Shown: positions 1,572 to 14,065, numbered from the stretch's first letter. The stretch is DNA of 64,000 nucleotides from Oleiphilus messinensis (GCF_002162375.1 NZ_CP021425.1:5953276-6017275); one strand, 5' to 3'. A program made the numbers and translations. Notes: generated from the sequence alone by a model not told the origin.

Positions 1572-3465
1572 TTGAGGCCGCAGAATTGTCTGCACCGAGC
1601 CATGCCGTGTGAATACAATCCCGCCCCTGGTGCTTGGAATGGTAGAGCTCGGTATCCGCTTTTTCCAGATACGCCTGTGTGGGGGTATCTCCTTGGGGTA
1701 TGCCGACACAACAGCCAATACTGACCGTAAGATTTACCGGCCCGCCCCGTGTGTTGATCGCCGTATCGGAAATGGCACGTCTGATGCGTTCGGCAACATC
1801 GCAGGCCCGTTTCGAGTCCGGCTCAAGCAGCACCACACAAAACTCCTCGCCACCGTAACGGGCCACCAGATCTGTTTCCCGCACAACCGTGCTGATCCGC
1901 AGGGCGACTTCCTGCAGACAGTCATCCCCGACCAGATGCCCCTGCTCGTCGTTAATGGTTTTGAAATGGTCAATATCAATGAGAAACACCGCCATCACAC
2001 GGCTATAGCGCACGGCCCGGGCAATTTCCCGACTCATGAAATGCTCCAGATAGCGCCGGTTGCCAAGCTGGGTTAACTGATCCGTATCACTCAGTGTTTG
2101 CAGCTTCTCGTTCGCCAGCTGCAACTCCCGCGTGCGGTCTGCCACCCGGGTTTCCAGCTCCAGCGTCGCCAGGCGCTGGATTTCCAGGGCCCGCTGCTGG
2201 GCGCGCAAGCGGAGTGCCCGCTCATTGGCTATCCGCTCCGCCAGGGCAAAGGACAGCAGGATCACCTCCAGTAAAATGCCAATCTGAATCGCAGAGTTGG
2301 TAAACCGGTTACTGGGGAGAAAACCGTATTTGCTCAATCCCAAAAGCAGTACACCACAGGCAAGAATACCCCACGACAATGTGTACCAGCGGGCTGCCGG
2401 GATTTTCCGATACCAGGCCACGACCCCGAGAAAAATGGCCCAGGCACTGACCGCAACAGAGAACACCACCACCCACTGAATCAGCTGCGCATAGTCAATC
2501 AGTAATGACAAGACAACCAATACGGCACTGACGGCAATGGCAATCGACTGCAACCGGTTCACCCGGTGACTCAGAAAGCGCACCACAAAGCGGGCTGAAA
2601 AGGCCATCCCAAAAAACAGCGTAAGCGTGAGCACAAACAAGAGTATCCGGTCATTCCAGAGCTGCTCCTCCGGCCACAGGTACTGATAGGCCCACCCGCC
2701 AATACCGGCACTGAACAGCGCCATGCAAATCACGTAACCCACATAAAACAAATACACCACATCTCTCAGGCCGAGAAACAGCAACAGGTTATACACCGCG
2801 ATGATGATCAAGGCACCGAAAAAGCCGCCCTGAAACCAGCTATTTCGTGCATCATCCTCAAAGAACGCTAACGGTTGCCAGAATGAAATCGGCACCTGGA
2901 TCGAGCTACTGGAGTGCACCCGGATCAGAAGTTGTACTTGCGCCTTTTCTGGCAGGAGGAAGGGCACAACAAAATTGCGATTTTCGACATTACGCTCGGC
3001 GAAGGGGTACTTATCCCCCAGCTGCCATTGATTGCGCACCTGGCCATCCACTACCTCGTAGATCTGAATGTCATCCAAAACCGGATAAGCAATCTGCAAT
3101 AACCAATCCGTTACCGGCCCGGCGTTATAGACCTGAAACCGAATCCACCACGCCGAGTCCGAATAGCCTTTGTTGACCACGTTGTCGGTATGAATTTGCC
3201 AGGGAATAGAGTACTGGGTCAGTTCCGATATTGTTAATTCGCCGGATGCATCTTCATACACTTCGACCTGTTGACCCACCTCAACACGCTTGAGCTCTGC
3301 ATTTAACAGAACAGCGGCAACGCTCTTACCCGCAACGCCTGCCAATATAAAGCCGAAACTCAGGTTGAAAATAATCCACAGCCAGGGTGCAGGCCTGCAT
3401 GCTTGACGGGAATTGAGCGTTTTACTGTTTGAATTGGTCAAGATCATCTCGGAAAACCAGATCAT
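1564..3465 (-). CDS. 7TMR-DISM sensor diguanylate cyclase (GGDEF)
   Basis: Periplasmic N-domain, about 7 TM helices, coiled coil, then GGDEF domain with RYGGEEF and DxLTGL motifs; ORF extends to 3636 but the signal-peptide-like start MIWFSEM at 3465 is more likely. Confidence 0.8.
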   Translation of the reverse strand: MIWFSEMILTNSNSKTLNSRQACRPAPWLWIIFNLSFGFILAGVAGKSVAAVLLNAELKRVEVGQQVEVYEDASGELTISELTQYSIPWQIHTDNVVNKGYSDSAWWIRFQVYNAGPVTDWLLQIAYPVLDDIQIYEVVDGQVRNQWQLGDKYPFAERNVENRNFVVPFLLPEKAQVQLLIRVHSSSSIQVPISFWQPLAFFEDDARNSWFQGGFFGALIIIAVYNLLLFLGLRDVVYLFYVGYVICMALFSAGIGGWAYQYLWPEEQLWNDRILLFVLTLTLFFGMAFSARFVVRFLSHRVNRLQSIAIAVSAVLVVLSLLIDYAQLIQWVVVFSVAVSAWAIFLGVVAWYRKIPAARWYTLSWGILACGVLLLGLSKYGFLPSNRFTNSAIQIGILLEVILLSFALAERIANERALRLRAQQRALEIQRLATLELETRVADRTRELQLANEKLQTLSDTDQLTQLGNRRYLEHFMSREIARAVRYSRVMAVFLIDIDHFKTINDEQGHLVGDDCLQEVALRISTVVRETDLVARYGGEEFCVVLLEPDSKRACDVAERIRRAISDTAINTRGGPVNLTVSIGCCVGIPQGDTPTQAYLEKADTELYHSKHQGRDCIHTAWLGADNSAASIT

Positions 3466-3879
3466 GCTCTGGGATGGGTAAAAAAACGCTTGTAAATAAC
3501 AAGCGCAAAGGCAAGAAAACACTCTGGATGGGATCACCCAAAGCAAGCGCGGAATCCCTTCCAAAAGGCTAACTGGAAGTACTGCCAAAACAAGCCTTCC
3601 GGAGCCTATTAAGCTATTTCTGGAACAAATAGTCATTGTTTAAACAGGAGCTGGCGTTGTGATTTTCGGAATAACATTGAATCTTGCTAGCCAGTGCACG
3701 AGACATTGTTTAATCGGAAGACCTGTTTACCCGGCAGATCTGTTTACCCGACAAACCCGCTCCGGCTGATCTACGCAGATCCGGTTTTCTTATCTACACT
3801 TTAAAGAATGGAAGTGATGCTGCCTTTAACGGGAGCGTGATACCATTAAGGTGACACCGGCATCAGAAAGAAGAATTAC

Positions 3880-4602
3880 GTGAAATATCAGAGCAGGCCC
3901 ATGACCACGCTATTCAATAAAGAAGACCGCATACTCAAACAGTATCGGGCTATTATCGAAACCACCGAGCATGAAGGGCATCCTCTGGTTCATGATTTGA
4001 CCGCGTTGCTAAGTCACTATGAAGAACTCTTGAGCAAGTTTGACCGGCTGACAAAAGTGAGTGATAAACAGCAAATATCACTCCATGAAATGGCGCGGGT
4101 TGATGGCCTGACCGGGTTGAATAACCGGAAATATCTGGAAGATTTTTTGAAATTCGAATGGAAGCGCGCATCGGATCTCGATGTGCCCATGGCCATGATC
4201 ATGGTCGATATCGACTACTTCAAGTTATATAACGATACTTACGGCCACCAGGCTGGGGATCGGTGCCTGAAACAAGTTGGCGAAGTGCTGGCGCAAACGG
4301 TTAAACGCTCATCGGACTTTGTTGCGCGCTATGGCGGCGAGGAATTCACCATTGTATTAACCGACTGTCGCCACCACTATGCGGTAGATCTGGCAGAAAA
4401 GATCCAGCGCGCCATCAGCACCGCAGAAATTCGCCATGCCGGTTCGAAGGTCAGTGAATATGTCACGCTGAGTATGGGCATTGCAGTCTATCAACCGGGC
4501 AAGGGCTCATCACCCTCAGCGCTGTTGAGCGCAGCCGATGAAGCACTCTACCGGGCCAAGGAAAGCGGGCGAAACCGGTTTCATCTGGGGCGCATCGACT
4601 AA
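3880..4602 (+). CDS. GGDEF diguanylate cyclase, SiaD-like (short coiled N-region plus GGDEF)
   Basis: 240 aa; DGLTGLNNRKY, RYGGEEF, intact I-site-like RxxD; small size and neighbourhood (SiaC/SiaB-like genes) fit SiaD. Confidence 0.75.
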   Translation: MKYQSRPMTTLFNKEDRILKQYRAIIETTEHEGHPLVHDLTALLSHYEELLSKFDRLTKVSDKQQISLHEMARVDGLTGLNNRKYLEDFLKFEWKRASDLDVPMAMIMVDIDYFKLYNDTYGHQAGDRCLKQVGEVLAQTVKRSSDFVARYGGEEFTIVLTDCRHHYAVDLAEKIQRAISTAEIRHAGSKVSEYVTLSMGIAVYQPGKGSSPSALLSAADEALYRAKESGRNRFHLGRID

Positions 4603-4617
4603 CCAGGACGCGGTATT

Positions 4618-5001
4618 CTAATCTGTTACCACCAGCTCGAAGGTGGCCTTGCGAACATCTTCGCGGAATTCTTCGCCAATTTCAGCCATGTAATCATCGT
4701 CTTCCGGATAAACCCACTTGATCACCACCCGGTTACCGGCACTTGCGGCTTCATCCATCAATTCCAGCAACTCCATCAGAATTCGTGCGGTGCTACTGTT
4801 GAAGTAGACAAACTCCAGCACCAATTCAATATCCGATGTGGATTGGGTTAACAGATGCGCTTGCAGCTTATCAACGGGCTCACGATAAAATTCCGTCACA
4901 TTCTCGGGATAGGACTCGCCCGAGATTCGGAAAACGTTATTTCCGAAGTCAAAATCAATTTCAGGTGTCCGGTCTGAACCCCTGATTTTTATCTGATCCA
5001 T
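4618..5001 (-). CDS. DUF1987 protein, SiaC-like phosphoprotein
   Basis: 127 aa; sequence MDQIKIRGSDRTPEIDFDF...ELVLEFVYFNSSTARILMELL typical of DUF1987/SiaC family; adjacent to SiaB-like gene. Confidence 0.65.
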   Translation of the reverse strand: MDQIKIRGSDRTPEIDFDFGNNVFRISGESYPENVTEFYREPVDKLQAHLLTQSTSDIELVLEFVYFNSSTARILMELLELMDEAASAGNRVVIKWVYPEDDDYMAEIGEEFREDVRKATFELVVTD

Positions 5002-5063
5002 ATCGTTTCCTTAGCTCGACGAATCCGTGCCCAAACAGGCACCATACACTTTGCGGAACCGCA

Positions 5064-5609
5064 TTATATATAAACCTTCAAATTATAAAATGCGCGCTTT
5101 TCGTCCAGCTCCACAAACCCGAAACTGAAATCCGATTTTGCACGCAGCGCAATCTCGATCAAGCCAACCCCCGCGCCTTTACTGCCATCCGGAATCGCCC
5201 CGTGGAGTCGTGACCGGTATTGGGCTTTCAGCTCGGGTCGATCCAGAGCCTGAATATCCTGCAATGCGGCGTCGATGCGCGCGACATCCGATATCGCAAC
5301 CGGATTTCCGCAATCGATATAAAACCGGTCACCCTCTTCCCCCATCGCGATCACACCACGGCCGAACTCAGTGCCATCATCGAGGGTACACCGCTCGAAG
5401 GAGTAATTCATAATATTCTGAATCTGTTCCACAAACAGCGCAAAGGCGGTTTGCCGGACTTTTTTATCCGCGTGGGCGAAAATGGCCGGTTTTTTCAACG
5501 CCTCCCCGACACTTAGCAACATTTGTTCGGTGATATAGCCGCTATAATAAAAATGCACACCGAGGTTCTGCATTTTCTGGTTAAGCGAATGGAGCGATAT
5601 AGACGACAT
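5064..5609 (-). CDS. SiaB-like serine/threonine kinase (RsbW/GHKL-like)
   Basis: Start MSSISLHS at 5609 with GGAGA RBS gives 181 aa; G-rich GSKGAGVGLIEIALR resembles GHKL G2 box; 4-gene context with DUF1987 and PP2C. Confidence 0.55.
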   Translation of the reverse strand: MSSISLHSLNQKMQNLGVHFYYSGYITEQMLLSVGEALKKPAIFAHADKKVRQTAFALFVEQIQNIMNYSFERCTLDDGTEFGRGVIAMGEEGDRFYIDCGNPVAISDVARIDAALQDIQALDRPELKAQYRSRLHGAIPDGSKGAGVGLIEIALRAKSDFSFGFVELDEKRAFYNLKVYI

Positions 5610-5740
5610 TCGTTCTCCGCCAGGGGATGGGTTAATACGATTGTTGAGATCGTTTTCAGCGCGAAAAAACCCCGGAACATTACCACAAATGCCTGAAGTT
5701 TTACCATACTTTACGCTATTGAGAGATTCGCAACCGATAA

Positions 5741-8536
5741 GTGATCCAGATAATGAAACAACCTGTCCATTTGGCAACAGTATGGCTACTCCTGCTACTT
5801 TTCTCCAGCTTTGGCCACACCACACCACCGCTGCAATTTGAGCACCTTACAACAGCCCATGGTTTGTCCAGCAATCTGGTCACCACGACCCTTCAAGACG
5901 CCCAAGGATTCCTTTGGGTGGGTACGGAAAACGGCTTGAACCGTTTCGACGGCTACGAGTTTCAAATTCACCGTCGCAACGCCGCCGCTTCAGAGACGTT
6001 GAATAGCAACCATATCACTCAACTTTTCCTGGATCAGTCCGGTCAACTCTGGGTCGGAACCGCTCGGGGTCTGAACCGGTATAACCGGTCACAAAACCGG
6101 TTTTCCACCATTCCGGCGTATCGCGATACAACCCCGGACTCGACGGTCGCCTTGAGCATCACCAGCCTGGCAGAATCTCAGGAACGGCTCTTTGTTGGGT
6201 CATCTCAGGGGCTGTTCCAGTTCAATCCCGACAAGCAGCAACTGGCACCCGTTTCTGCTCCCGAGCACATCGCCCCTGCACTGCTCGATTCCGAAGTCAG
6301 TGCGCTGTTGTTCGATAGCGATGGCTATTTGTGGGTGGGTACCCATGAGGGTTTACACCAATGGAACCCGGTGGAACAAACCCTGAAGACCTACAGGCAC
6401 GATGAGCAGGACGACGAACAAACAGTAGGTAAAAAGACAATAATCGATAATACCATTCAGGCATTGTATGAAGACCGAAAAGGTCAAATCTGGATCGGCA
6501 TAGATGGTGGCCTGTCCCGCCTGAATCCGGAGACAGGTGTGATCCGTAACTTCTACCATGGTGAGGACGGACACAGCCCGGAACTGGTCGGGGACGAGGT
6601 GACGAGTATTCTGGAAGATGCAAACGGTAATATCTGGATTGCAACAACAGAAGGCTTGACCCGCTACAACCCGGCGGACGAAACCTTCACTGCACTCATC
6701 CATGAACCGCAACTGGCGGACTCGCTCGCCCACAGCAAAACCCGCTCCCTGACCATCGATCGTTCGGGCATCCTCTGGGTTGGCACCCAGGGCGGTGGAA
6801 TCAGCCGCCTGAACCTTCAGCCCAAGGCATTCTACCGCGAACAACATCACCCGGAGCTGGAAGCGTCATTAGGTTACGACTCGGTTTTATCCTTTCATGA
6901 AGATCATGCCGGACGCATTTGGGTCGGCATGGAGGACGAGGGGTTCAACCGCTTTGATCCTCGCACCGGCACTTTTGAGCGTTTTGAGTATGAGGCTGAG
7001 GATTTTACGCTGGAAGAAACCACCGAGGGTATTTTTTATATCGACTCCGGTGGTATTCACAAAGATCGAGTGCGATCCATTCAATCGGACCAACGGGGAA
7101 ATCTGTGGATGGGCACCAGCGAAGGGTTGGAATACTTTGACGTTGAAAATATTCGCTTTCGCCACTTTCACCCCAAAGCCGGTCGGCCACATAGTCTCAG
7201 CCATGAAAATATTGGTGTTTTGCTACTCACGTCCGAAGATACATTGTGGATTGGGACGCAAGAGGGCGGTCTGAACAAGTTTAACCCTGAAACCTACGAA
7301 AACGAGATTTTTCGCTACCGGGAAAATGACCCGAACACACTGGGCAGCGACCGGATCACCGCACTCCTGCAAGATCAACAGGGTACGCTCTGGATTGGTA
7401 CAGAAGGCGGAGGTCTTAACCGCTTTGATGCCAAACAGGGTAACTTCCAACGCTTTGCCTTGCCGTTGAAAAATAATCAAGCTGCAGCGAGTAGCAATTC
7501 CATCTGGACAATTTACCAGGCAGAAGATCACCGCCTGTGGGTGGGCACCGATGAGGGGTTATACCAATTCAGTCCGGATTCCGGCACGTTCACCCCCTCA
7601 CCGCTCACGCTGAATGGCGAAGCAAACCGGGTGCTGGGTATTGTCGAGGATGATCACAGCAATCTCTGGTTAAGCAAGGAGAACGGCATTACCAAGTTCA
7701 CCCCCAGCTCCGGTGCGGTGCAGAATTTCAATGCGCGCAACGGCTTGCCCACTGACCAGTTTTTGCCCGGGGCGTACTATCGGAGCAAGGCGGGTGACAT
7801 CTATCTGGGTTCCAATCAAGGCATGATCCACTTCAAACCCCACGAGATTACCACTAACCAACACGTGCCGGATGTTGTCCTGACCAAGCTGGAAATTCTG
7901 AACAATGCGGTTACCCCTGCTAGCGACGACAGCCCATTGCAGGTTGATATCACACAGGCAGACAGACTCTCCCTCTCTTATCAGGATAAAGCCATCACCC
8001 TGACGTTTTCCGCCCTGGATTTTGCCAATCCGGAAAACAACCAATACGCCTACAAGCTTGAAGGTTTCGACCCTGACTGGAATTTCATCGGGCATCGACG
8101 GGTTGTGAGCTACACCAGCCTGCCGGGAGGGAATTACACATTCAAAGTCCGGGGCTCCAACAATGATCAGGTCTGGAATGAAGAAGGCATTAACCTGCCG
8201 ATATTTGTCGCCCCGCCCCCCTGGCTGACTTGGTGGGCCTACACCTTGTACGGTTTAACACTCATCGCGATCATCGCGGGTATTGCCCGCTACAGAACGC
8301 TGAAAATTGAACGGCAGTTAGTGGAGCAGGAAAAAGCGAACCGGATACTGGAGCACAAAGTTGCAGACCGCACCAAAGAACTAAACGTCAAGAACGAGCA
8401 ATTGTTCCGTTCCAATCAGAATATTTTGAGCAGTATTCGCTATGCCCAGAAAATCCAGCATTCCCTGCTACCCAACCAGTCCATGGTGCAACAGCTGTTT
8501 GGCGACTGTTTTATTGTTTGGGAACCGTTTTCATAA
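5741..8536 (+). CDS. SiaA-like sensor, N-terminal 931 aa: signal peptide, beta-propeller two-component-regulator repeats, Y_Y_Y domain, TM helix, coiled coil; truncated at entry to the PP2C domain by IS insertion
   Basis: Many repeats of the xWxGTxxGLxxxD Reg_prop motif, Y_Y_Y-like region ([35 protein letters not shown]), [20 protein letters not shown], then [16 protein letters not shown] typical of the first PP2C motif; ORF ends 3 codons after WEP. Confidence 0.8.
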
Positions 8537-8575
8537 ACCTGCTTAAACCTACTCAAGGTTTAAACGAGCCTATCC

Positions 8576-10231
8576 CTACAGCGCAGGGTGCGCGGAAAGC
8601 AGGGTTACGCTTTCCTGAATCAAGTCGGGACTCATGCCCGGTCTACCATCAAGGCGAGCCTCGACGGAGTAACTAACCCGATTCACACGACGAAAGTGAC
8701 GCCAGCCACTCAGAAAATCTAATGATTTTTCGAGTGGTTGGTACCAACGCTGAAGTTTGTTGTAATACTGATAATCCCCGAGCGCCATCCTTACAGGCGG
8801 ATGCTCGGTCTTAACGGTACCCTTCGCGTTAATACCAATGAGTTGTTTTGGCGGCTTTTCTTTAAAGCCATAATGCCGACGACCAATCACTAACGCGGCC
8901 GCGTGGTGATCTGAAAAACCGTGTCGATCGCGATACTTCATCCGCCCCAATAATGAGGTATAAGCCGGATTGACGTGATATAGGCGTATGCCGCGTTTAA
9001 TGCTTTGCGTTTCAATCAAGTCCTTGATCTTACCGTAAGCAAAGGCATTCAACATGCGGGCATACTGAGGATGATCCTGCTTTTGGTATTGCCGTTTCTT
9101 TTGCTGAAAATCCAGCTTTTCGATCACCACCGCTTTACCTTGCTGTGCGGCAAAGTCCATCAGGTCTCGTACGGCATCCCCAATAATAGCCGCTCGTTGA
9201 GCATCATTCTTATAGTGCAAAGGTAAGTCAAACGTTCGGTGTTGCAGTGGGTTACCGTTCCGATCCAGCTCGACGACCGCTAAGTGATCCGGGTTGACAT
9301 CCACACCAATGACACCTTGATCAGCATCGATCCACTCTGCTTGCGCTGTTGGTCCTGCCACTTCCACGCTAACGAGTAACCGCCAACCTTTTTTGTCTCG
9401 CTTAAATCGAAAACTCAGGGGTTGCCCTTTGATTGATTTATCGAGTTTTTTAACCTGATTCTGCCAGACGGCTTGGGCAATAGCCGCCTTACCATGCTTG
9501 AATTTCAGGCAATCAATGTTAATGGTCGTGCCGAACGTAGCGCGTAATTGATGGGGTACCAGGAGTTTTAGCTGGTAAGCATCATCTTGCTCACTGGGCG
9601 ATAGCTGGGCATTTTGACAGCCCCAGGATTCATCATGAGAACCCACCAATAGAAATTCGCGGTGTCGTGCTTCGTGCCAGCGTTGTTTCCAGCCTTCAAT
9701 GGCCGAACCCGTTTCTAACGCTTGACGCTCTTTCAGCAGCTTTCGACCGCCGAAACAAATGGGGGTTTTATTTGCCTGTTTTTCGGCCACCAAGGCGGCC
9801 TGCTTTTGCTGCCAACGATGCAGTTTCACTTCCTTCTGCCGTAGCGTGTTACGAAGTTGTTTTGCCTGTTGCGGGCAGCCTTTCTCTGCGACATGATCAC
9901 AGCGCTTCTTTAATTTGTTGAGCGTTTTCTCCAGCTGTTTGATTTTAACGTCCAGCGTCACCAATCGGTTGTTTCGATTGGTTTGGTAAGACTGGATTAA
10001 ACCTTTAATGCTTTGCCGGACGCCTTGAAACACCCGATAGCTGAACGGCATCCCCATTTCATGCATAAACTGGGTACGACTCAATTGCTGGGCTTTAGGC
10101 TTTTGTAAGTTAGCAAACCAACGAAACTTCACTTGATTCCACAGCTCGGCATAGTGGCACAATGCCGCATCCTGCTCATGAATCAAATTAAGCCGGGTTT
10201 CAAAGGTGAGTGTTTTCGTTAGCGTATCCAC
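8576..10231 (-). CDS. tnpB: TnpB (IS605/IS607 OrfB; RuvC-like RNA-guided nuclease family), 551 aa
   Basis: OrfB N-region, RuvC-like core, hallmark GIRLYHVNPAYTSLLG motif and C-terminal zinc-finger region. Confidence 0.85.
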   Translation of the reverse strand: MDTLTKTLTFETRLNLIHEQDAALCHYAELWNQVKFRWFANLQKPKAQQLSRTQFMHEMGMPFSYRVFQGVRQSIKGLIQSYQTNRNNRLVTLDVKIKQLEKTLNKLKKRCDHVAEKGCPQQAKQLRNTLRQKEVKLHRWQQKQAALVAEKQANKTPICFGGRKLLKERQALETGSAIEGWKQRWHEARHREFLLVGSHDESWGCQNAQLSPSEQDDAYQLKLLVPHQLRATFGTTINIDCLKFKHGKAAIAQAVWQNQVKKLDKSIKGQPLSFRFKRDKKGWRLLVSVEVAGPTAQAEWIDADQGVIGVDVNPDHLAVVELDRNGNPLQHRTFDLPLHYKNDAQRAAIIGDAVRDLMDFAAQQGKAVVIEKLDFQQKKRQYQKQDHPQYARMLNAFAYGKIKDLIETQSIKRGIRLYHVNPAYTSLLGRMKYRDRHGFSDHHAAALVIGRRHYGFKEKPPKQLIGINAKGTVKTEHPPVRMALGDYQYYNKLQRWYQPLEKSLDFLSGWRHFRRVNRVSYSVEARLDGRPGMSPDLIQESVTLLSAHPAL

Positions 10232-10827
10232 TAGGCGACGGCTCGTTGATTTTTACGACTACGTGAACCATGCAATCGCGCACTGAAGACCGTCATTAAC
10301 GCTAACACATCATGGCAAAGTTGCTGTTCAACGTTTTCTTCAACTTCCTCAAGAATGACAACCTCCGTACCGTAAAACTGGCAAAGCGCAAATAACAATT
10401 CAGCCCCAAATCGGAGTAAGCGATCTTTATGAACGATAACCAGTCGTTTTACCTTACGCTGACAAATCAACTTAATTAATCGCTTTAATCCCCGTTTTTT
10501 ATAGTTTAATCCTGAGCCAAGATCATCAATGGTTTCGACGGCTTCATAGCCAGCCTCTCTGGCATGCTTTTGCAAGCGAGCAATTTGCGTTTGCAAATCT
10601 TTTTTCTGATCATGAGAAGAGACGCGTGCATAACAGATTGTTCTGCGTTGCTCATTAGCAGTCGACTGACCGCAAAAGGCTAAAAGTTTATCAAGCGCGT
10701 AACGACGATGGCCACCAGGCGTACGGAAATCTGAGAAAAATCGTGATTCTTTTTCCCAGCGACGAAGGGTGGAAACGGCCACACCCAGAAGAAAAGCGGC
10801 AGCGCCTATCGATAGAAATTCAGCCAT
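10231..10827 (-). CDS. tnpA: IS607-type TnpA serine recombinase with N-terminal MerR-like HTH
   Basis: MAEFLSIGAAAFLLGVAVSTLRRWEKE (HTH) then RTICYARVSSHDQKKDLQTQ (catalytic Ser region), resolvase fold; GGAGGTG RBS 6 nt before ATG at 10827. Confidence 0.8.
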   Translation of the reverse strand: MAEFLSIGAAAFLLGVAVSTLRRWEKESRFFSDFRTPGGHRRYALDKLLAFCGQSTANEQRRTICYARVSSHDQKKDLQTQIARLQKHAREAGYEAVETIDDLGSGLNYKKRGLKRLIKLICQRKVKRLVIVHKDRLLRFGAELLFALCQFYGTEVVILEEVEENVEQQLCHDVLALMTVFSARLHGSRSRKNQRAVA

Positions 10828-10915
10828 GATCATCACCTCCATCCATGAGAAAACAATACTGTACAAGCTACTGTATATGAGTAGGTTTAGTCAAGTATTT
10901 CGTTAACTGTTAAAG

Positions 10916-11566
10916 CCCCGGGATATTGTGGGTGGCGATATCTACTACATCGACAAACTGGACAACAAAGTCATTGTGGCCGTAATAGACTGTACCGGTC
11001 ATGGTGTGCCGGGTGCGTTTATGACCATGCTGGCGTCATCCGGCTTGCGCCGAATTACCGTTGACGAGCACTGTCATGATCCCGCTGAGATTCTCGCTAA
11101 ACTGAACCGGATTGTGAAAAAGTCGCTGCAACAAGATACGGATCACGCCAGTTCCGACGATGGCATGGACGCGGCGGTGTGTGTCATTGATGAAGCAGAA
11201 AAAACCGTTAAATTTGCCGGGGCCAATTTACCCCTGACCTATATTCACGATGGCGAGATACACAGCATCAAGGGGGACAGGGAAAGTCTCGGCTACCGCC
11301 GCTCCGACGTTGAACACGACTTCAATAACCATGAAGTCAAAGCCCGGAAAGGCACCGTGTTTTATCTGTATACCGATGGCATAACCGATCAGTTGGGCGG
11401 CGAAAAAAGAAGAATGTACGGGAATCGACGTTTACGGGAGACCTTGCTCAAACACCATAATCACAACTCTGCAAAACAGAAAGAAAGCGTTATTGTTGAG
11501 TTTGAGCAATACCGTTCCGATAACGAAGTGCAGGATGACATCACCCTGATCGGTTTCAAGATGTAG
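10916..11566 (+). pseudogene. 3' fragment of the interrupted siaA-like gene: PP2C (SpoIIE-type) phosphatase domain
   Basis: In-frame KPRDIVGGDIYYID...AVIDCTGHGVPGAFMTM...YLYTDGITDQ...DDITLIGFKM are the conserved PP2C/SpoIIE motifs; no credible own start other than GTG 10928; continues the reading frame logic of 5741..8536. Confidence 0.75.
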
Positions 11567-11667
11567 AGCCTAATCCGGATAAGATCAACATTCGTCGATG
11601 ACGAATGTTGATCTCCTGTTGTTAGACTTTTAACAAGTTTGAGCCTGTCATCAATAACCACTGGCCA

Positions 11668-13077
11668 TTAGTTCTCACATCCCTCTGACGAGGCTGTTTT
11701 CGAAACATCCGCCGCATCCAGCCCGGTTGTAATCGTCGCTGCAAACGAACTTAAAAATTGGGTATTCAGGGTTGCAATACTCAACCCCGACAACTGAAGA
11801 CTCGCCGCGCCATCGGCAAATACGAGCTCAACCGGTTGATTTAACCCCAGAAACGACAGTGTTCCGGCCTCGGTACTGGTGATCTGGATACGGGTACCCT
11901 GAACTGAAAACTGGTAATCAGCCAACGCACCCGGCAGTTCAATACGCTCCACATTGGCATCCACCGTAATCGTGGGGTTACAGGAGACCAATAAGGTTTC
12001 CTGTTCCGCGTTACCATAAACCATTGTATCGGCCTGGCTGGTATAAAGATTACCGGCCCCTAAAAATGCCACGGACTCCGTCGCACCGGGTGTCGATTGT
12101 CCATCCGTGAACCGTTGCAATATGCCAGCGGTGTTGATGGTCCAGACATCGCCCGCTTCGGTATCCAGCGCCAGGCCACTGAAGGCCACATTCGTTACCG
12201 GTAACGCAATTTCCTGCACCAGTGACCCAGTCAGGGTCAGTTCCAGCATCGCCGCTTCGGCACTGCTGAGTACATATAAATTACCGTTGCTGCCCACCTC
12301 CAGGTCACCGGATACCACGTCGAAATCAGTGGCCACAGAAGCAAGCGCGATGCGGTTCAATATACTCCCGTCGGACGCGCTGATTTCCGCAATCACATTG
12401 GCATCGCTCGACACCGCTTCGTTATTTTGCAGCAGAAAAAACGAGCCCCGCTCTGGATGGTAAGCCCCACCGACCACAAAACCCTCGCCAAACGAGGTGG
12501 TCTGGCGTGAAACTTGGTTACCGGTCACCGGGTCAAATCCGTACATTATCGTAATGCCGCCTTCCCCTTCGAATACCAGTATTGATCCGGCGTCGATCTC
12601 CGCCCGACCCAACTGCAAGGCTTCAGGGGCAACACTGATATCCAAATGGCTTGAAACACTACTGCTCGGTAATTCAATACTGGACAGCACAGCCCCTTCC
12701 GGAGTCACCTGAATCAGTTGATCATTCTCATGGTCCTGCAGCCAGAGCGTGTTTGTCATCTCCGCATAAGCTACCCCGTATGCGCTTTGTGCCTCTGTCG
12801 CCAGGGTCTTGACCAGGTTCAAGGTGCTCTCTGCTGCCGCATCATGGCTGATCGAGATTCGCAGGTTATCAACCCGATTATCAATCAGGACGGCAGCATT
12901 ACCGGAATGCCGCCACCCGGTCACATAACCGAATTGCATTTCAGCACCGGAAAAATCCGGATGGAAATTTGCATTCATTTCCGCCGTTTCAAGGTCGATC
13001 ACCAGGCTGAAATCCGATTCCGTTAAACTCTGCATTTTCGCACGGTGCCAGGCATTTTCCTCAACGGGGGTGATCAT
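11668..13077 (-). CDS. hypothetical protein, probably secreted beta-propeller-like
   Basis: 469-aa ORF, Ser/Gly/Thr rich repeats; overlaps upstream ORF by ATGA. Confidence 0.45.
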   Translation of the reverse strand: MITPVEENAWHRAKMQSLTESDFSLVIDLETAEMNANFHPDFSGAEMQFGYVTGWRHSGNAAVLIDNRVDNLRISISHDAAAESTLNLVKTLATEAQSAYGVAYAEMTNTLWLQDHENDQLIQVTPEGAVLSSIELPSSSVSSHLDISVAPEALQLGRAEIDAGSILVFEGEGGITIMYGFDPVTGNQVSRQTTSFGEGFVVGGAYHPERGSFFLLQNNEAVSSDANVIAEISASDGSILNRIALASVATDFDVVSGDLEVGSNGNLYVLSSAEAAMLELTLTGSLVQEIALPVTNVAFSGLALDTEAGDVWTINTAGILQRFTDGQSTPGATESVAFLGAGNLYTSQADTMVYGNAEQETLLVSCNPTITVDANVERIELPGALADYQFSVQGTRIQITSTEAGTLSFLGLNQPVELVFADGAASLQLSGLSIATLNTQFLSSFAATITTGLDAADVSKTASSEGCEN

Positions 13078-13475
13078 ATGGCGATACTGGTAGTAGTTAC
13101 CCGCCTGCTGAATGAGGAGGTGCGCCCCCAGGACCCCAGCGTACCGCCCTCGACCGCGACCCAGCGATCCATGGACGCGCTAATGGTGTTGATGTTGCCC
13201 TGCGTGGCCGGATCCCACGAAAAATGGGAGTTGATAAAATAGTTTCTCGAGCTGTGATTCGGGTTATTGGCCGAGACTAACGTCATGTGGCCGATGGACG
13301 TCCCCGGATTCCCGGGGGAACTGTTCGACACGATTACCGTGGTGTCGCCACCATTGGAATGGCTTGCCACAACATAATCATCAAGATCAAAATCCCGATC
13401 AAGAAAAACAGAGCTGGCCTGGGTACTGCCAACCATTCCCACTAAACAAAGCGCAAAATACTGATTCTTTTTCAT
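13074..13475 (-). CDS. hypothetical secreted protein (signal peptide); possibly N-terminal part of the downstream ORF
   Basis: MKKNQYFALCLVGMVGSTQA signal peptide; 4-nt overlap with 11668..13077. Confidence 0.4.
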   Translation of the reverse strand: MKKNQYFALCLVGMVGSTQASSVFLDRDFDLDDYVVASHSNGGDTTVIVSNSSPGNPGTSIGHMTLVSANNPNHSSRNYFINSHFSWDPATQGNINTISASMDRWVAVEGGTLGSWGRTSSFSRRVTTTSIAI

Positions 13476-13699
13476 TGGTCACCTTCACTCCATGACATCA
13501 ATCCATGAAAACAGTCCATGGCAAAACACTTAGCGTTTTCGTTGTTGTACATCATATGTTCACTTTTGGTCAAATTTGTGTCACGAACAATTCCGCGGCG
13601 TTTTCGTTTATTCATTCTGAAGCGTTATAGTTTTTTTATTCTAGAAGCGAGGGCTAGGATTAACTGACTCGAACAATCCAACACGTTAAGGACTAAACC

Positions 13700-14065
13700 A
13701 TGGGTAAGCTCAGTTCATTGCAACAACAGGTTCAGGACAGCATCAACAACGCCATCAGCACATCCGAACGCACTTATTTCTCACTGACCGAGAAATCTGC
13801 GTCCTTCTGCAGCAAGTGGTATCAGCAACACAACTCATCTATTGCCAAGGCCTGCAATAGCTTGCGCGAATTCAATATCAAGTCCGGCGAAAAACTCGCT
13901 GCGGTTATCGCCAAAATCGAAAAGGAACCGACCACGGAAGACAAAGTGAAAGAAACCATCGACCAGGCCGCCGAGGCGACCAAAACCCTGGTTGAAAAAG
14001 CCGCCGAACAAGCCGCAAAACTCAACGAAAAAGCCAAAAAAGTGAAAGAAGACGTTTTGGCTTGA
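13700..14065 (+). CDS. phasin-like (PHA granule-associated) protein
   Basis: 121 aa, alpha-helical Ala/Lys/Glu-rich low-complexity C-terminal half (EKAAEQAAKLNEKAKKVKEDV) typical of phasin family. Confidence 0.55.
   Translation: MGKLSSLQQQVQDSINNAISTSERTYFSLTEKSASFCSKWYQQHNSSIAKACNSLREFNIKSGEKLAAVIAKIEKEPTTEDKVKETIDQAAEATKTLVEKAAEQAAKLNEKAKKVKEDVLA

Follow-up and report, generated by a model that had tools for sequence, protein, structure and literature searches.

A recent insertion of an IS607-family element into a SiaA-type phosphatase gene, with loss of the gene's function, is in our judgement very probably the correct explanation of the gene arrangement found at positions 5741-11566 of a 64,000-nucleotide stretch of the Oleiphilus messinensis genome (NZ_CP021425.1:5953276-6017275; this whole stretch is hereafter called the window, and positions are counted from its first letter). 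Two open reading frames (ORFs), which flank the insertion sequence (IS) on the opposite strand, are the halves of a single gene encoding a phosphatase of the PP2C type with a periplasmic sensor. The evidence comes from the anatomy of the two halves, the mapped ends of the element, the reading frame that is restored when the element is removed, the conserved order of the neighbouring genes, and the presence of the same insertion in a second, diverged strain.

Structure of the interrupted gene

The interrupted locus is made up of three segments:

5753..8526, + strand: 5' part of the sensor-PP2C (SiaA-like) gene (Reg_prop 192 bits, Y_Y_Y 68 bits, PDB code 4A2L with E 1e-101)
8527..10917, − strand: IS607-family insertion sequence of 2,391 bp, a single copy of the GG/CC core being counted in, with ends taken from the copies L005 and L006
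10918..11566, + strand: 3' part of the sensor-PP2C gene, from RDIVGGD through the stop codon (Pfam SpoIIE, SiaA model, PDB code 6K4E)

Behind a signal peptide, the 5' part encodes a double β-propeller of the hybrid two-component system (HTCS) type, built from about 14 Reg_prop repeats, and a Y_Y_Y domain; these are followed by a transmembrane helix and a coiled coil, and the part closes with the first PP2C strand (...FIVWEP). An earlier note on this DNA, made from the sequence alone, had included a HAMP domain in the architecture. None was detected in a Pfam search of the sensor-PP2C protein, which has only the transmembrane segment and the coiled coil. The ORF extends from 5741 to 8536 on the + strand (931 aa), and the ATG at 5753 is its probable true start according to the annotation of the near-identical protein P0001. 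In the interrupted state, it reads two codons of element sequence and then meets a stop at 8534-8536. The 3' part preserves all of the PP2C metal-binding motifs (GGD, DCTGHG, YTDGITD and QDDIT), and it looks like a separate gene because an in-frame GTG at 10928 opens an ORF of 212 aa (10928..11566, + strand; GGDIYYID...CTGHGVPGAFMTM...YTDGITDQ...DDITLIGFKM) that covers positions 2-189 of the 192 positions of Pfam SpoIIE.

When the segment 8527-10917 is excised in silico, the sequence ...TGG GAA CCC CGG GAT ATT... results, the frame is restored to read ...FIVWEPRDIVGGD..., and the reconstructed protein has 1,140 aa. Taken separately, the halves match the NCBIfam SiaA model at positions 384-445 (42 bits) and 450-657 (173 bits), and after excision they match it in a single stretch, positions 384-657 of 658, with 245 bits. 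Its alignment with the SiaA-PP2C crystal construct (PDB code 6K4E, E 3e-50) has no gap at the junction either. The join FIVWEP|RDIVGGD reproduces the sequence of the nearest intact homologues, P0002 (57% identity, 1,120 aa), which reads FIVWRPRDIVGGD, and P0003 (55% identity, 1,136 aa), which reads FIVWQPRDIVGGD; these two share the motif VW(R/Q)PRDIVGGD. The insertion point lies within a Pro-Arg codon pair of the PP2C domain, past the first β-strand and ahead of the metal-binding GGD, and the computed empty site is ...TTTGGGAACC|CCGGGATATT... (core region GGGAACC|CCGGGAT).

The splice and the orthologue comparison had both been proposed in the earlier note, and with the unbroken PP2C alignment, the orthologue motif and the conserved neighbours they bear out its claim of a SiaA-type sensor-PP2C gene cut by an IS607-family element. 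The continuation of the gene that it placed at 10916 is likewise genuine, with a corrected start: the host sequence resumes at 10918 with RDIVGGD, and in the 'KPRDIV' quoted there, the element supplies the 'K' and some of the 'P'. An intact second copy, which the note had named as an observation that would speak for a decayed paralogue, was looked for; the 64-kb window holds none, and neither a second sensor or PP2C gene nor a second copy of the element was found within it.

Both junctions recur in a second assembly, GCA_022361325.1, so that the interruption is not an assembly artefact. In that genome, NCBI lists the 3' piece as a serine/threonine phosphatase and calls the protein of the 5' piece hypothetical. 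The correct annotation is one interrupted gene instead of two proteins.

Structure of the IS607-family element

The element carries the following features in addition to those of its right end, which are listed further below:

10231..10827, − strand: tnpA, IS607-family serine transposase (Resolvase 75 bits, MerR 35 bits, NF033518 198 bits)
8576..10231, − strand: tnpB-like gene, 551 aa (NCBIfam guided_TnpB 98.3 bits)
8537..8555, no strand: right-end arm of a sub-terminal imperfect inverted repeat, 19 nt, 84% complementary to 10878-10896
10878..10896, no strand: left-end arm of the same repeat, partner of 8537-8555

The ends of the element are fixed by two independent copies, L005 and L006, which were retrieved from other metagenomes through homologues of the tnpB-like protein and which give the same limits. 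The first is 95% identical to the element, lies in unrelated flanks and has an internal deletion of 442 bp in tnpA; the second is 82% identical, on a contig that consists essentially of the element only. Similarity to the one and to the other begins and ends at identical bases. The measured length agrees with the IS of about 2.4 kb, with tnpB and a serine-recombinase tnpA, that had been noted earlier. In the orientation of the element, the junctions read flank-GG|CTTTAACAG...TATGAAAAC|GG-flank, with the right terminus GAAAAC|GG, and the second copy of the core dinucleotide is host 8525-8526. The target is thus a GG/CC core dinucleotide, GG stands at both termini, and the junctions in the window, L005 and L006 have no target duplication; only the CC/GG core is shared, as the earlier note had also stated. 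These properties are those of the IS607 rule (PMC6188088), by which the target is GG, preferably (G)GG, the termini carry GG and duplications are absent. The circle junction of the excised element is predicted to read ...GAAAACGGCTTTAAC..., or in a longer form ...TATGAAAACGGCTTTAACAG....

TnpA is composed of an N-terminal MerR-type helix-turn-helix (HTH) domain and a C-terminal resolvase catalytic domain, and it matches the NCBIfam model NF033518 over positions 3-187 of 187, well placed against the cutoff of 110 bits. Its ORF, 10231..10866, has 211 aa; the probable start is at 10827, where it is annotated in the contig L035 of the second assembly, and an upstream start at 10866 is possible. 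The stop of tnpA and the start of the tnpB-like gene overlap by 1 nt. We conclude that the element is a previously undescribed member of the IS607 family with cleanly mapped ends. That it may be mobile is suggested only indirectly, by the different flanks of the L005 copy and by the identical copies in two diverged strains. A search of a plasmid collection returned no close relative of the element, only a weak match of 186 bp to a Microcystis IS607 tnpA, and a scan of metagenome contigs with the conserved right end gave 0 matches. The L005 copy (ENA ERZ27314230), which at positions about 366-374 lacks the 442 bp of tnpA, retains the tnpB-like gene and both ends, and represents a non-autonomous derivative.

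The Sia-type module

Three genes lie next to the sensor-PP2C gene, which is transcribed divergently from the first two:

5064..5600, − strand: SiaB-family protein kinase gene (DUF6272; PF19788 119 bits; NF038262 155 bits, cutoff 85)
4618..5001, − strand: SiaC-family phosphoprotein gene (DUF1987; PF09345 130 bits; PDB codes 6KKO/6K4F, E 2e-18)
3880..4602, + strand: SiaD-like diguanylate cyclase gene (GGDEF; NF038266 172 bits, below the cutoff of 290)

The cyclase has a GGEEF active site, and its RSSD sequence fits the RxxD pattern of an I-site. In the SiaC homologue, the residue at the position of Pseudomonas aeruginosa Thr68 is a serine (LLYLN-T-SS versus FVYFN-S-ST in the alignment with 6KKO). 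Genes for siaB, siaC and a GGDEF protein also flank the intact orthologues in the contigs L002 and L003. Judged from this conserved linkage of a PP2C protein, a SiaB-family kinase and SiaC, the module appears to be a partner switch of the SiaABCD type. The equivalog test for SiaA itself was missed: the reconstructed protein reaches 245 bits against a cutoff of 700, and the match is confined to the coiled coil and the PP2C domain (positions 384-657), because of which we regard the phosphatase as a SiaA analogue with a different sensor and not as a SiaA orthologue. Its standing as an analogue follows from the SiaB-family kinase, SiaC and GGDEF neighbours that are conserved here and in the orthologues. 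The description "SiaA-like" in the earlier note is qualified accordingly.

The orientation of the GGDEF gene varies between these loci. It is convergent with siaB-siaC in the window and in L002, and co-directional with them in L003 (6044-6760), as in the P. aeruginosa operon, which points to an inversion of the cyclase gene in part of the lineage.

Age and spread of the insertion

The second assembly, a metagenome-assembled genome (MAG) of the Pseudomonadales that is about 2% diverged from the window, carries the same insertion. Its junctions lie on separate short contigs, each of which breaks off within the element: L001 (window 5247-8691, 97.9% identity) and L035 (window 10639-11576, 98.6% identity). 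The synonymous divergence (dS) and the ratio of non-synonymous to synonymous divergence (dN/dS) between window and MAG are as follows:

5' half of the sensor-PP2C gene: dS 0.078, dN/dS 0.09
3' half of the sensor-PP2C gene: dS 0.067, dN/dS 0.09
siaB (partial): dS 0.068, dN/dS 0.11

The element sequence shared by the two genomes, in contrast, amounts to 444 bp (165 + 279 bp) with 0 differences, which has a probability of about 2e-5 at the rate of the flanks. Since the ends of the element are identical while the gene halves differ at a dS of ~0.07, the insertion would be younger than the split of the strains, and the simplest reading of these alignments is that the IS-bearing allele moved between them. 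This comparison is one of two genomes only, and the MAG contigs terminate in a repeat, where their sequence may be a consensus. Ordinary homologous recombination could have carried the allele across, and so could homing of the TnpB type. The low dN/dS was also considered as a sign of selection after the insertion, and this was rejected, because the identical element ends imply that the divergence predates the insertion. The locus provides an example of an insertion allele that is common to diverged strains.

An old, fixed insertion, in which the gene would be a decaying pseudogene, possibly with an intact paralogue elsewhere, is improbable by comparison with such a recent event. The insertion is indeed carried by both known genomes of the species-level group, and no intact close allele is known. 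However, neither half of the gene contains a frameshift, a stop or a loss of motif, the element ends show zero divergence against a dS of about 0.07 in the neighbouring sequence (P about 2e-5 at equal rates), and a paralogue is absent from the window.

The host sequence next to the element is not equally similar on its two sides. On the side of the right end, where a guide would lie, host 8135-8526 is free of differences over 392 bp between window and MAG (P about 7e-5), whereas on the other side only the 90 bp of host 10918-11007 are free of differences, which then begin 91 bp from the junction. Such an asymmetry would fit co-conversion during spread by recombination or homing; chance or an effect of assembly is possible as well. 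Past the stop codon of the gene, no similarity is detectable between the window from 11577 onward and L035 938-1295, where a different downstream gene marks a break of synteny at the level of strains.

The tnpB-like gene and a candidate guide RNA

The tnpB-like protein reaches 98.3 bits (E 6e-28) with the NCBIfam model NF040570 (guided_TnpB), just under the cutoff of 100, and misses the threshold of the IS607_TnpB model (16.5 bits, cutoff 350); a Pfam search returned no match, OrfB included. At E <= 1e-3, its family comprises about 2,300 cluster representatives, of which 1,469 remain at E <= 1e-10; members typically have 500-560 aa. The RuvC-I aspartate D311 (GVDVN) and the RuvC-II glutamate E371 (VIEKLDF) are invariant in the family. 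The third catalytic position, placed by our own comparison of the motifs H-x-A-A-A-L-x-I and D-x-N-A-A-x-N-I, is a histidine (H442) in 177 of the 186 members scored, which departs from the canonical D-E-D triad, and a CxxC...CxxC zinc finger downstream of the PAYTS motif is present in 0 of 236 family members. As a search of the PDB with the sequence profile of the family gave only coiled-coil noise, a fold search was needed to place the protein. An AlphaFold model (mean predicted local distance difference test (pLDDT) score of 78) was matched by Foldseek to Cas12e, Cas12f, Cas12m, ISFba1 TnpB, Fanzor2 and RuvC. An exact-protein look-up of the tnpB-like protein and of the 3' phosphatase fragment found no identical record, and a literature search on TnpB proteins that lack the zinc finger found nothing relevant and no report of activity for this clade. 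These comparisons suggest a clade of divergent TnpB relatives that have a D-E-H triad in place of D-E-D and no zinc finger, and for which a function in nuclease cleavage or homing is putative. The element draws attention to a TnpB-related clade of moderate size, with histidine at the third catalytic position and with the zinc finger absent.

Distant relatives of the tnpB-like gene occur alone, without tnpA, in the contigs L036, L037 and L038. Their neighbours there are DNA-metabolism genes for a primase, thymidylate synthase and kinase, a ligase and a methylase; such surroundings suggest phages or other mobile DNA.

The 3' end of the tnpB-like gene overlaps a structured region:

8527..8746, − strand: right end of the element, predicted structured RNA overlapping the tnpB 3' end, candidate scaffold of an omega RNA or right-end RNA (reRNA), ending in ...AACGG

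The last ~50-90 aa of the tnpB-like protein are weakly conserved and modelled with low confidence, and the DNA that encodes them is unusually conserved among copies of the element. The consensus structure of the right end, computed from 3 sequences only, has 77 predicted pairs, 4 of them with compensatory changes and 1 broken. In this model, the RNA resembles a guide-RNA scaffold that overlaps the 3' end of tnpB, and we regard it as a candidate for one; a putative guide would extend into the host from 8526 to about 8507 on the minus strand. The right end terminates in ACGG; on the left, flank and core together give GGGG in one copy and AGGG in the other two (RGGG). A search of both strands of 3000-14000 against Rfam (E <= 1) returned no family, and hence neither a group I intron nor a known type of guide RNA.

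The identical insertion site and the one-sided tract of 392 bp may also be read together, as a possible footprint of RNA-guided homing of the element into empty alleles by the D-E-H TnpB relative. We consider this unlikely, and put it forward tentatively. If true, the clade would consist of active guide-RNA nucleases with a non-canonical active site.

Probable functional consequences

In P. aeruginosa, SiaA dephosphorylates SiaC, the unphosphorylated SiaC activates SiaD, and SiaB phosphorylates SiaC again; loss of siaA results in poor aggregation (PMC7278518, PMC7647112). In the window, an autonomous IS607-family element, whose structured right end accompanies tnpA and the divergent tnpB-like gene, has integrated in antisense orientation at a GG/CC dinucleotide in the region encoding the PP2C domain. 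What is left is a protein with sensor, transmembrane segment and coiled coil, devoid of its catalytic domain, and a promoter-less 3' fragment, and the function of the phosphatase has most likely been lost. If the module works as in P. aeruginosa, SiaC is then expected to be kept phosphorylated by SiaB and the cyclase to remain unstimulated, and the output of cyclic di-GMP (c-di-GMP) from the module would be lowered. For the organism, the insertion would amount to a probable knockout of the signal-input phosphatase in a c-di-GMP/biofilm partner-switch module; the findings as a whole leave current understanding in place. The phosphatase gene is followed by a hairpin:

11582..11614, + strand: terminator-like hairpin with a 15-bp stem

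A polar effect of the insertion is not expected, because the gene 3' of this hairpin is on the opposite strand.

Several points weigh against this interpretation or parts of it. The 3' fragment retains the whole of Pfam SpoIIE and an in-frame GTG, which makes a residual, unregulated phosphatase activity possible, and another PP2C protein encoded outside the 64-kb window could substitute for the lost one. The identity of the element ends in the MAG could partly reflect a consensus assembly of a multi-copy repeat. For the tnpB-like protein, finally, the histidine in place of the third catalytic aspartate and the lack of a zinc finger leave the nuclease or homing role putative only.

The knockout might be reversed. 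TnpA of the IS607 family lets the element leave as a circle and the donor site is resealed without a scar; in the system studied, TnpB and a guide RNA then cleave the resealed site, which causes the element to be copied back into it (bioRxiv 10.1101/2023.11.20.567912). In the present locus, TnpA could restore the gene exactly because excision by serine recombinases is conservative, and homing by TnpB and a guide RNA, if present, would oppose such a reversion. The earlier note had gone further and raised a reversible switch. As considered here, this would be a selected one, in which excision and re-insertion by TnpA toggle the phosphatase and with it biofilm signalling. In its favour, the ORF is recovered exactly when the element is taken out at the mapped GG cores, tnpA appears intact, neither gene half has decayed, and IS607-family TnpA excises scarlessly at percent-level frequency in E. 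coli (bioRxiv 10.1101/2023.11.20.567912). The lack of decay, however, is explained by a recent insertion with its 444 bp of identical ends, and the target specificity of IS607 is slight beyond GG, so that re-insertion at the same site would need homing, not ordinary transposition. Nor was an empty-site allele found in the collections searched. Among 5.8 billion proteins there is one close relative, and it is truncated in the same way; a scan of metagenome contigs for the left host flank, which would show empty or occupied sites, gave 0 matches, and a scan of genome contigs with the reconstructed protein returned relatives of <=34% identity only, with no close genome and no empty site. Reversion by excision is thus possible in principle, and a selected on/off switch is unsupported and, in our estimate, has only a slim chance of being real.

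Slightly slimmer still is the chance that the gene has been split into functional parts, with the 212-aa 3' ORF expressed alone as an unregulated PP2C phosphatase that would continue to dephosphorylate SiaC. The near-complete SpoIIE match with all catalytic motifs and the in-frame GTG would permit this, as would the dN/dS of 0.09 and the annotation of the sister copy as a serine/threonine phosphatase. Against these stand the lack of any promoter-like site upstream of the 3' fragment on the + strand and a Shine-Dalgarno-like sequence upstream of the ORF that is only a weak GGGA. Moreover, the 6K4E construct includes residues that align with the first strand (FIVWEP) and with the helix before it, and the fragment has neither; the low dN/dS reflects divergence that is older than the insertion. 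Rescue at the RNA level, in which the element would be spliced from the host mRNA in the manner of an IStron and the gene would stay functional, was rejected as having next to no likelihood: group I introns that act in this way occur in some IS607-family elements (bioRxiv 10.1101/2023.11.20.567912), whereas the element in the window is antisense to the host gene and has neither a group I intron nor any other match in the Rfam search described above. The knockout by a recent insertion therefore remains our preferred explanation.

Comparison with known systems

The module resembles SiaABCD of P. aeruginosa (PA0172-PA0169) in its PP2C domain, which aligns with 6K4E, in the presence of a SiaB-family kinase, in a SiaC homologue that is phosphorylatable at the Thr68 position, and in a GGDEF cyclase with a helical N-terminus. 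It differs in the sensor, which here is an HTCS-type double β-propeller with Y_Y_Y, whereas SiaA has a periplasmic domain of its own and HAMP. The phosphatase gene is divergent from siaB-siaC and the cyclase gene convergent, instead of all belonging to a single operon, and the equivalog cutoffs of SiaA, SiaC and SiaD are not attained. The sensor itself is homologous to that of the Bacteroides hybrid two-component sensors (BT4663, PDB codes 4A2L/4A2M), with which it shares the periplasmic Reg_prop propellers and the Y_Y_Y domain (E 1e-101). The output, however, is a PP2C phosphatase here, and a histidine kinase, a receiver and an AraC domain there.

With IS607 of Helicobacter pylori and other members of its family, the element has in common a TnpA made up of a MerR-like HTH and a resolvase domain, an overlapping downstream gene of the tnpB type, insertion at GG, preferentially (G)GG, GG termini, the lack of a duplication, and repeats that are only imperfect and sub-terminal. 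It is longer (2,391 bp), and its second gene encodes a divergent TnpB relative of 551 aa that has the D-E-H triad and is devoid of the zinc finger. The structured right end that overlaps the 3' end of tnpB is reminiscent of CboIStron (bioRxiv 10.1101/2023.11.20.567912), and the pair ACGG/RGGG, as seen in three copies only, parallels the TCGG of that element and the TGGG of its target-adjacent motif (TAM). In contrast to CboIStron, the element described here contains no group I intron, and a histidine replaces the aspartate in its nuclease site.

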